This document shows, piece by piece, positions 6,001-9,000 of a DNA stretch of 11,797 nt. Positions within the stretch are counted from its first letter, which is position 1, and every line of letters begins with the position of its first letter. Source of the DNA: a virus (taxonomy: Duplodnaviria; Heunggongvirae; Uroviricota; Caudoviricetes). The position numbers were made by a program. The DNA lies in IMG/VR virus record IMGVR_UViG_2740892233_000017; one strand, 5' to 3'.

Positions 6001-9000
6001 ACCGGAGAGCTGGTTGACGCTTCCGGGATTTTCCGAAAATTATTGGTTGACGAATCTTTATTTTCCCGAAAGTTTCCGGACTGAAGCATGGCTTCGCGGC
6101 AATCGTTCCAGCCTGTAGCGTATGCAGCCGCTTTGCTGCTGCCTTCAACTGGCGCATCCTGCCAATACATTTCTTCCGGCACTATCGGCGCTGGAGGGGC
6201 GGCAAATAGATATCCGCCAAAGTCAGGAAGCTCTCTAATGGCCTGTACGAATTTTTGTTTGCCTACGTCAACCCCTAATGGGTAATGAGCTATAATCTTT
6301 GCCACCGGCTCTGCTTCCAGCGATGCCAGCGCAATCCGTGCCAGCTCTTCCGCTTCTTCTGCTGGAAGCACAACGTTGCTACCCGGTCCGTATGTTTCGC
6401 GCCAATGCTGGATTGTCAGCAGTCGATCTTTGGTAAAAGTGGTCATAGCTATTTCACCTTAATCTCAACATTTCGCAGCTTTAGCTCTACTGGCAGGTCT
6501 GACTTTCCTGTTAATGCTAATGCGAGATTTTCTGGAGTAGTGAGAACAGTTATTGTTTTCCCCCTCGCCAGACGAATAATCATGTGTATCTCGCTATCGT
6601 CACATGCTCCTGGTCGAACAATTGAGATTTGTCCGTTCATCTCACTCTCCTTTGATGCGAATGCCAGTAGCGCGGATTGCATCGATGACTTCAGAAACTT
6701 TGTATGCCATTACCGTTTGGTAATCATCGTGAAAATCTGTTCGATGNNNNNNNNNNCGGGCGTTCGGAATAAAGGAGCCTGACGTAGATTATCCAGTGAC
6801 GGTAGTCGAGGCTAAGGGCTTTCTTAAACTCATACCCACGTCTGCGGTAGTTATGAATCAGCCATTCGGCCTGTTCTTCAGTGCAGGGATCGTGCTGATA
6901 CCAGTCATATTTGAATGTGTGAGAACACCGCCCTTGCCTGCTGGCAGGGGCGATATCAGAATTGTGATGTTTGGTATTGTGCGCCATCGGTTTTCTCTGC
7001 TGGCGCAGCAGGTGCCAGTTGTTCAAGCTGGCGTGCGGCAATATTGTCTCTGATTTCTGTTGTCGTCAACAGGCAACGTGCTATCATCGAATGGTGTTCT
7101 ATCCTACTCCGTGAGGTTTACCATGCGTACAACCCAACAATTCAGCATTACATTAACTAACGAAATGGCTGACATGGTGCGCGCCCGTGTGGCTTCCGGT
7201 GCCTATGCTTCAGAAAGCGAGGTCATTCGTGAAGGGCTTCGCGCACTGAATGAGCGCGATAAAGCAATCGAAGCGTGGTTAACGCATTCAGCCGCCCCCT
7301 CTCTTGATTCTATCCGCGAAAATCCAAACAACGGACGCTCCATTTCACAGGTTCGCGCCGCGATTCGATCCGGGAAGTAATCTGCATGACATATGAAGTC
7401 ATCATTACTCCTGAGGCCGAACAACAAATAATCAACCTGCACAGGTATATAACGGAGAAAGCAGGGAACGTCATTGCTGACAATTATGCCAATGCGCTTC
7501 TTGATTATCTTGATGGGTTTTCTACATTCCCGCATCGGGGCAATAAACGCGATGATATTCGCCAGGGGATGCGGGTAACTCATTTCCGCCACAGAACGAT
7601 TATTGCTTTTGCCGTTGATAGCAGAAAAGTCTTTATTGTCGGTATCTATCATGGTGGGCAAAGTTATGAAACCGATTTCTTATAAACTTTTACCCACATC
7701 ATTCCGGTGTTAGAATTAACCGTCCGCCCCCTCTCTTACTGGCGGATTCGTAGGCTATATAAATCAAAGATCCCGGCTCATGTTTATGTCGGGATCTTTT
7801 TTCGGCGATTTATCCCCAGCGGCAAATCGAATACACCACCAGCGCCACCGCCATCGCAATTCCTACCGTTGTGAATGCTTCAGGCCAGGTCATCGTAAAA
7901 TATCCTCCACGCTTATCAGTCCGTTCCGCTCCAGATAACTCATCGCCTTATCCGGTAATTTGCAGTCTGGCTTCGCTTTCCTCAGTTGCCAGGTTAACTG
8001 CTTTACCAGCATGGTTAACTCATCGACCAGACGCTGATATCCCACTGGTTTGTATTCATGCAATTTACCGGCTGGCTCTGCTGCCAGCGATACCAGTGCG
8101 ATTTCCAGAACAGCAATATCCATCTTATATGTGCGGATGATGTCATGGTCGATTGTGCCCGGTATGCACAGTCTCTGTGTTTCAATAGTCTCCTCTGCGT
8201 GAGCTATTAACTGCTCTCTGGTAAAAGTCGTCATGCCGTAGCCCCTTCTTGATATTTTTCAAACCAGAACACAACTGGGTCAGATTTCATTTCAACCAAT
8301 CCCATACGAACCAGCGCTTTGCCTTTCCCGGACGCAAGGAATTCACGACGACCATCACTGATAATTCGCCGATAATCTTCCAGACTACTGCAATGCTTGT
8401 GCAGATTGCATGGGTGGCATGCCGGAACCATGTTGGATATATCGTCACGTTCCTGGTGAAGCATATTTCCATCAAAACGAATGACCGGTTTTACATGGTC
8501 TGCATGCCACTTTTCGCCAAGTTCGCAGCCGCAATAAGCACAGCGACCGCCGAACTTCATGCGCAGCTCTGCACGTTGTTTTTTCGTCAGTGCCATATCA
8601 GCTTTCCTTATACGGATTAATTTTATTGTGCAGTGTGCTGAACGACGCCCACACCACGTCGTTATACAATTCAATAACTGGCTCAATTATTTTCACGATA
8701 AACCAGACCAGTAATAGCGGGGGTATCGGTATCATCAACACGATAAATATAATGAGAAACAAAAATTCTGTCGCTCTACTTTTTCTCGGATATTCTTTTC
8801 TGAATAATGTAGTCATTTCTTACCGCCCTTTCAGGCGGCCTCCTGATGTTTTGAGGGTGCAGAAATCCCTCCGGTTAAGGATTAAATTTTTAACTAAATT
8901 TAATTATTCAGGCGCGATAAGCTGTTCCGCACAATCCAGCAATGCTTCTGTCGCTTCCTTAAGCGTTACTGTATCGCTATCATCCAGTCCTGCAACTTTT

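Follow-up and report, generated by a model that had tools for sequence, protein, structure and literature searches.

An 11,797-nucleotide (nt) stretch of a Caudoviricetes genome (IMG/VR record IMGVR_UViG_2740892233_000017; the window, meaning that stretch at its full length) carries on its minus strand two small genes separated by a single base. The first (8598-8816) encodes a 72-amino-acid (aa) single-pass membrane protein of the DUF4014 family and the second (8231-8596) a 121-aa zinc-finger HNH endonuclease. Does this arrangement constitute a functional unit, or are the two genes neighbors assembled by recombination? An earlier note on this DNA, exact in its coordinates for both genes and for the spacer base (8597) and right about both protein identities, which profile searches recovered above cut-off (PF13198 and PF01844), had proposed that they form an exclusion, abortive-infection or anti-defense pair. 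The results presented here indicate instead that DUF4014 and the HNH nuclease are probably independent, separately exchangeable accessory modules, and that their adjacency is the product of lineage-specific recombination rather than the mark of a two-component system. The arrangement is typical of ordinary lambdoid mosaicism.

DUF4014 and HNH genes are frequently found apart

We assessed whether the two genes travel together in four samples: complete Escherichia coli genomes, the contigs closest to the window's DUF4014 gene, the contigs closest to its HNH gene, and one genome per species. Among the complete E. coli genomes (n = 5,426), the HNH gene was detected in 385 and DUF4014 in 1,008 (at 1,713 places), and a 241-nt probe across the DUF4014/HNH boundary was covered in 217. 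Approximately 44% of HNH-bearing genomes do not contain the junction, and something other than HNH follows DUF4014 in at least 87% of its copies. The conserved co-occurrence and gene order that characterize a two-gene system were hence not found, with at most 217 of the 1,713 DUF4014 copies presenting the junction.

Contigs selected for their proximity to the window's HNH gene (80 IMG/VR loci, 96-100% identical) present DUF4014 upstream in 58 cases. In the remaining 22, the upstream position is occupied by 11 other gene groups, again almost always at a distance of 1 nt, giving at least 12 different genes as upstream contexts of the HNH gene among close relatives. At the species level, 80 loci recovered with an HNH profile (39-99% identity) contain DUF4014 within 3 kb in only two instances, in E. 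coli and Shigella, and a crude hydropathy test identified membrane-like neighbors upstream of nine of these loci and downstream of two. Homologs of the nuclease are located after NinB in Yersinia nin regions (74% identical), in a Klebsiella nin region (61%), near int in Comamonas (47%), in the virulent T1-like phage IMM-001 (77%), after the DNA ligase gene of the T4-like phage RB49 (42%) and roughly 0.8 kb upstream of the large terminase gene in phage Bas77 (49%).

The phyletic ranges of the two proteins also differ. For DUF4014, 5.8 billion searched proteins yielded only 168 clusters, whose names point to a handful of enterobacterial genera (Escherichia, Salmonella, Shigella and Enterobacter), and the gene is present in about one-fifth of complete E. 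coli genomes, with up to six copies per genome. The HNH family is distributed far more broadly, with 700 hits reaching Comamonas, Aquabacterium, Acinetobacter and phages of Gram-positive bacteria. The earlier note had made its proposal depend on co-occurrence in related prophages and on the nuclease not belonging with homing or terminase-associated enzymes. Because the two genes are often apart in related prophages, and because HNH relatives occur in homing-like, terminase-proximal and other contexts without a membrane partner, the proposed pair is not supported.

In a second DUF4014 clade (epsilon15 type, approximately 46% identical), a member of the HNH family lies immediately upstream of DUF4014, in reversed order, at 11 of 42 IMG/VR loci (39 distinct contexts). 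The same HNH-then-DUF4014 order is present in phages g341c and HK225, and the two genes overlap as ATGA in those phages and in several loci of the clade. This recurrence exceeds what a naive random-neighbor model would predict, and it is one of several points that weigh against the independence of the two modules. The adjacency is still frequent, occurring in 56% of HNH-bearing E. coli genomes and in the 58 close IMG/VR loci noted above; the neighborhood counts are uncorrected for shared ancestry; and membrane topology, translational coupling and the functions of both proteins are predictions. Two independent adjacency events could nonetheless arise by chance within a small pool of ea-region cassettes.

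The position following DUF4014 is a variable cargo slot

Inspection of the 77 IMG/VR loci on the contigs closest to the window's DUF4014 gene revealed that the downstream gene starts 1 nt past the DUF4014 stop codon in 76 of them. That gene encodes the HNH nuclease in 28 loci; the alternatives are proteins of 87 aa (23 loci), 176 aa (DUF551-like; 18 loci), 123 aa (five loci) and 95 aa (three loci). With at least five unrelated gene families following DUF4014, the position is a variable plug-in cargo slot, as the earlier note had suspected. The HNH site is thus polymorphic, but its alternatives are other genes: an empty site, in which the 114-aa gene found downstream of HNH in the window would directly follow DUF4014, was not observed among the 77 loci. 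In strain SCPM-O-B-12142, for instance, DUF4014 and the 114-aa gene enclose genes for the 87-aa protein and a 55-aa protein instead of HNH, in a different kind of prophage region beside hokD.

The junction itself is compact. DUF4014 and HNH meet as TGA-T-ATG, with position 8597 as the only spacer base, and the last DUF4014 codons (AAG GAA AGC TGA) contain a Shine-Dalgarno (SD) sequence, AAGGA (8609-8605), located about 8 nt before the next ATG. Given this SD in the DUF4014 tail and the TGA-N-ATG geometry, any gene recombined in at that ATG would be expected to become translationally coupled to DUF4014. The window contains a second DUF4014 cassette, described below, and homology between the two cassettes runs from a shared SD-hairpin through DUF4014 and ends approximately 25-35 nt into the downstream gene. 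The corresponding cargo starts (8576-8596 and 10375-10395) encode MALTKK in the HNH protein and MATLTKK in the 87-aa protein. Across further loci (L083-L162 and L261-L302), unrelated cargo proteins likewise begin with similar residues (MALTKK/MATLTKK, MTTITKE/MTTFTRE and MTTNxHPAHGPVSLDRL), so that the junction homology extends into the downstream coding start.

Relaxed homologous recombination between lambdoid phages is mediated by Red/Rad52-type recombinases (PMC2327257, PMC3945230). Short conserved junctions are the expected substrates of such recombination, and the cargo slot is therefore explained without invoking any role for a nuclease. The mosaic ea and nin regions of lambdoid and P22-like phages are made up of small, tightly packed genes with cassette exchange at their junctions (PMC2327257, PMC3945230, PMC2629481). 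The window resembles these regions in its short conserved gene ends, in the presence of alternative cassettes between identical flanks and in the occurrence of a given cassette in the leftward early region of one prophage and the nin region of another. It departs from the typical ea/nin mosaic in the unusual regularity of the junction, which combines a stop-N-ATG arrangement, an SD in the DUF4014 tail and about seven shared first codons.

On its other side, the HNH gene is followed by the 114-aa hypothetical gene (7890-8234, minus strand; PHROG 660), whose start overlaps the HNH stop as ATGA. Of the 77 loci having a downstream open reading frame (ORF), 70 present this gene behind HNH with a -4 overlap, and it is the most constant HNH neighbor among close relatives. 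As a separate observation, the last 45-51 nt of the HNH gene (within 8231-8281) match at 96-100% in about 300 further E. coli genomes that do not contain the rest of the gene, which suggests a shared 3' junction sequence. We also identified a single in-frame DUF4014-HNH fusion (P0002; Shigella sonnei, 194 aa, corresponding to 72+1+121 residues and matching both PF13198 and PF01844) on a 2.9-kb contig; a 1-nt sequencing or indel artifact at the stop-N-ATG junction is its probable origin.

The cargo gene encodes a putative free-standing HNH nuclease

The product of the HNH gene (ATG at 8596) matches Pfam family PF01844 with 28.2 bits (cut-off 21.4) and PHROG 2118 at 8.8e-57. Comparison of 45 homologs delineated a zinc site formed by C19, C22, C60 and C63, together with invariant H31, D33, H34, N55, N64 and K67, and the structural model is confident (predicted local distance difference test, pLDDT, 90.5). 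The protein hence presents the beta-beta-alpha-Me fold, conserved catalytic His, Asn, metal ligand and CCCC zinc site of this nuclease class. Since the active site is both intact and conserved, we predict that it is a working metal-dependent nuclease under selection. It is presumably cytoplasmic, as its N-terminal sequence contains no signal-peptide-like hydrophobic stretch.

A sequence search of solved structures with the HNH protein returned only 4H9D, and weakly. This Gme HNH nicking endonuclease and the phage GVE2 HNH protein (5H0O) are, like the window protein, small stand-alone HNH enzymes, but only a core of about 70 residues aligns, and the gene context in the window is not terminase-adjacent. 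The conserved C-terminal region of about 50 residues (helices 72-97 and 111-119, with an FWFE motif) has no solved counterpart. The wide and promiscuous distribution of the family fits a selfish or ancillary nicking enzyme. We found no literature on an HNH endonuclease in the exo-xis region, and the paper describing the O145:H25 Stx2a phage does not mention the HNH gene.

DUF4014 is a predicted bitopic membrane protein preceded by a putative split ribosome-binding site

The DUF4014 gene (stop codon at 8600-8598) encodes a protein matching PHROG 1832 and aligning, from residue 1 to 71, to the 72-position profile of PF13198 (78.4 bits, cut-off 23.2; E = 5.7e-22). Hydropathy peaks at 2.97 over residues 19-37, with five Arg/Lys residues before the hydrophobic stretch and one after it. 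On the basis of hydropathy and the positive-inside rule, the protein is predicted to be a bitopic inner-membrane protein with N-in/C-out topology. The AlphaFold (AF2) model is a kinked continuous helix (residues 14-28 and 31-66; mean pLDDT 85). Family members are nearly always 72 aa long and share conserved motifs in the short basic N-terminus, around Pro30/Pro33 in the membrane segment and at the C-terminal LHNKxNPY. The conserved C-terminal helix is predicted to be periplasmic, and an envelope-directed role, for example in superinfection exclusion or in modifying the surface, is the likeliest guess for this protein.

Epsilon15 gp46 and ES18 gp39, which once bore the name 'acetyltransferase inhibitor', are DUF4014 homologs (46% identical, 72 aa) in a similar Ead-flanked accessory region, but in these phages, unlike in the window, no HNH gene adjoins DUF4014. 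Two functional labels attached to the family had no traceable experimental basis and were not used: the PHROG 1832 label 'released from the phage upon host infection' and the legacy epsilon15 gp46 label 'sugar/O-polysaccharide acetyltransferase inhibitor', which has been dropped from the current epsilon15 record. Literature searches returned no papers for 'DUF4014', none on the epsilon15 'acetyltransferase inhibitor', and only irrelevant papers for L0067.

The DUF4014 gene is preceded by a translation-initiation leader (8817-8846, minus strand) consisting of an SD sequence, AGGAGG (8844-8839), a hairpin (8838-8823) and UAAGAA before the AUG at 8816. The hairpin has a 7-bp GC stem capped by a GAAA tetraloop and forms in both minimum free energy and centroid folds. 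The SD-to-AUG spacing is 22 nt in linear sequence and about 5-6 nt with the hairpin formed, within the range (about 5-11 nt) to which a stable hairpin restores an over-long spacing in a split ribosome-binding site. In T4 genes 38 and 25, a hairpin similarly shortens a 22-nt spacing to 5 nt, and efficient initiation depends on it (PMC3014915); the lambdoid leader shares this geometry, although its sequence is unrelated. By analogy, DUF4014 would be translated from a split ribosome-binding site in which the hairpin brings AGGAGG close to the AUG.

The conserved SD-hairpin element that the earlier note had described is real. Its 21-nt core (GGAGGCCGCCyGAAAGGGCGG) occurs in three minus-strand copies (8823-8843, 9895-9915 and 10621-10641), where none is expected from 200 shuffles, and the element is present in 107 of 162 loci, mostly ahead of DUF4014 and DUF7167 genes. 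The stem varies at one position only (C or U, yielding a G-C or G-U pair), which provides no evidence of covariation, and no Rfam family was detected at the hairpin even at E <= 1. The third window copy (9888-9918, minus strand) precedes a 60-aa DUF7167 gene (9705-9887). A longer 74-nt leader (8821-8894), comprising the SD-hairpin and an upstream AT-rich stretch with a second small hairpin, also occurs alone and unannotated, at 96-97% identity, in the complete E. coli genomes listed among the matches; at the one locus examined (strain W60), the gene behind it is a DUF7167 gene, and the prophage is a different one, with hokD and RusA close by.

Alternative explanations for the adjacency

Beyond independent modules joined by recombination, the HNH protein might be a free-standing homing-type, selfish endonuclease whose landing sites are conserved lambdoid junctions, including the DUF4014 flanks, in which case the adjacency would reflect target preference. 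We regard this as unlikely. The location of HNH genes at precise gene boundaries, with their many upstream contexts, their occurrence in ea regions, nin regions and both T1-like and T4-like virulent phages, and their presence on either side of DUF4014 are all in line with homing, as are the annotation of a Caulobacter phage homolog as a homing endonuclease and the HNH homing-endonuclease genes noted in P22-like early-left operons (PMC2629481). Cassettes without a nuclease, however, are swapped into this slot through junctions of identical geometry, indicating that general homologous recombination is sufficient. The lack of an empty-site allele in the 77 loci and the fact that the 121-aa protein has no recognizable sequence-specific DNA-binding domain also argue against homing.

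A similarly doubtful identity for the HNH protein is that of a structure-specific recombination or repair nuclease, of the Rap/NinG or endonuclease VII kind, supporting recombination-dependent phage replication. Two PHROG 'endonuclease VII' families match the protein (2.8e-12 and 2.6e-8), and homologs adjoin NinB, YbcO, RusA and NinG in nin regions, but the NinG match itself is weak (18.2 bits, below the cut-off of 25.4) and the gene is dispensable in most related phages.

Because the adjacency arose at least twice, in clades about 46% identical and with opposite order, some real link between the two genes deserves mention, improbable as we judge it: the nuclease might home to DUF4014 flanks, or the short cytoplasmic N-terminus of DUF4014 might regulate the nuclease in an order-tolerant exclusion module. 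The specific pair put forward in the earlier note, with DUF4014 as membrane sensor or anchor and HNH as effector of an exclusion, abortive-infection or anti-defense module, appears very unlikely. The 1-nt gap and tight coupling of the genes, the junction in 217 of 385 HNH-bearing E. coli genomes and the recurrence of adjacency in a divergent clade are what such a pair would lead one to expect. Yet each gene is commonly found without the other, DUF4014 accompanies HNH at just two of the 80 species-level loci, the order of the two genes varies, their phyletic ranges differ greatly and unrelated non-nuclease cargo occupies the same slot. The conserved part of DUF4014 is, moreover, predicted to be periplasmic, away from a presumably cytoplasmic nuclease. 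PADLOC identified no defense system; it has no model for DUF4014, which gave no match, and returned only partial HNH-core matches to PtuB and PDC-M01B, and NCBIfam yielded only sub-threshold IscB and retron HNH core matches to the nuclease. On the basis of these partial and sub-threshold matches, assignment to a known defense system was rejected.

Lastly, a role of the HK97 gp74 type, in which an HNH nuclease encoded at a distance from the packaging genes would assist the terminase, is most improbable and was rejected, since, despite the similar sizes (121 versus 119 aa) and the terminase-proximal Bas77 homolog, there is no detectable similarity to HK97 gp74 (nothing by BLASTP; hhalign probability 0.4%), the gene lies in the leftward early region rather than next to terminase or portal genes, and most closely related Stx phages lack HNH and package without it.

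We thus favor the interpretation of DUF4014 and HNH as independent, exchangeable modules. Under this interpretation, the HNH cargo, a minimal free-standing nuclease, would derive from a broad and promiscuous phage family. It would most likely act in the cytoplasm while the phage grows lytically, nicking or cutting DNA either as a selfish or ancillary enzyme or to assist recombination, and would probably do so independently of DUF4014.

A second, diverged cassette in the window

The earlier note had described a duplicated cassette at 10132-10646 with an unrelated downstream gene and a frameshifted membrane gene. The unrelated gene and the frameshift were both verified, but the cassette is a diverged homologous one rather than the result of recent duplication within the window. 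On the minus strand, the second SD-hairpin (10621-10641) and frameshifted DUF4014 gene (10397-10644) are followed, 1 nt after the DUF4014 stop, by the 87-aa alternative cargo gene (10132-10395; PHROG 1714). The two window cassettes share 87% identity over the SD-hairpin, the DUF4014 gene and the first seven or so codons of the next gene. Relative to the intact allele in locus L141, the second DUF4014 copy has a 1-nt deletion, with one A missing from an A7 run, and could be either a true pseudogene or a homopolymer sequencing error. The order of this cassette (70-aa gene, DUF4014, 87-aa gene) is found intact in complete genomes, such as that of strain THO-006, and its exact window arrangement was found in no complete E. 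coli genome.

Comparison of coordinate offsets with the Stx2a phage ArgO145 revealed an extra 726-bp block in the window (9888-10613) that is absent from that phage. The block is bounded by 140-nt direct repeats (9888-10027 and 10614-10753; 96% identical) within which lie the SD-hairpin and the 3' end of the 70-aa gene, a layout that fits the gain or loss of a cassette through recombination of one repeat with the other. The window also contains two runs of exactly 10 N each (6747-6756 and 10028-10037). The latter sits exactly at the end of the 9888-10027 repeat copy and splits a chimeric 66-aa ORF (9921-10121); this junction may be an assembly gap or a mask.

Prophage setting

The window covers the left end of a lambdoid prophage of the Stx2a type, integrated at wrbA. 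It opens with a wrbA-like gene fragment (1-579) and the integrase gene (576-1910), followed by a long run of small minus-strand genes, and the DUF4014-HNH stretch is located between Ead/Ea22-like genes and int. Over positions 7800-9600, the window DNA shows 100% identity to ArgO145 and to two further Stx2a phages. In the ArgO145 RefSeq record (NC_049918), gp11 is annotated as 'HNH endonuclease' and gp12 as a DUF4014/PHROG 1832 protein, with the same gene order and junctions and no difference across 7800-9600, and both genes were therefore already known. In ArgO145, about 5.4 kb separates attL from the HNH gene, which belongs to the leftward early region, and no terminase gene was identified within the window.

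Promoter-like and terminator-like sites in the window are no commoner than in shuffled sequence. A self-contained moron with its own promoter and terminator was considered and rejected, as these signals are at shuffled level and none is correctly placed. As the small ORFs lie on the same strand, with mostly touching or overlapping stops and starts and no promoter or terminator of their own, they are presumably expressed from the leftward early transcript of the prophage.

Two further elements were identified in the window. A full-model match to the Rfam family sRNA-Xcc1 (RF02221; 65.4 bits against a gathering score of 53, E = 2.6e-10) is located on the minus strand at 5236-5325, flanked by an AntA-like antirepressor gene (4556-5224) and a DUF551 gene (5550-6446). 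A ParD/ParE-type toxin-antitoxin pair (7060-7685, plus strand; Pfam ParD_antitoxin 2.3e-7, ParE_toxin 4.5e-10) is encoded on the opposite strand and converges with the string formed by the DUF4014, HNH and 114-aa genes, and looks like a moron-type insertion.

Implications

Had DUF4014 and HNH formed a defense or exclusion pair, they would have constituted a new minimal two-gene system in Shiga-toxin phages, which the evidence does not support. What the locus provides is a clean and quantified example of a lambdoid plug-in cargo slot, in which the last codons of the upstream gene would supply the ribosome-binding site for interchangeable downstream genes, and of which the conserved, putative split-ribosome-binding-site hairpin forms part. 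DUF4014, as a strongly conserved 72-aa predicted membrane protein, is a reasonable target for a simple phenotype screen.

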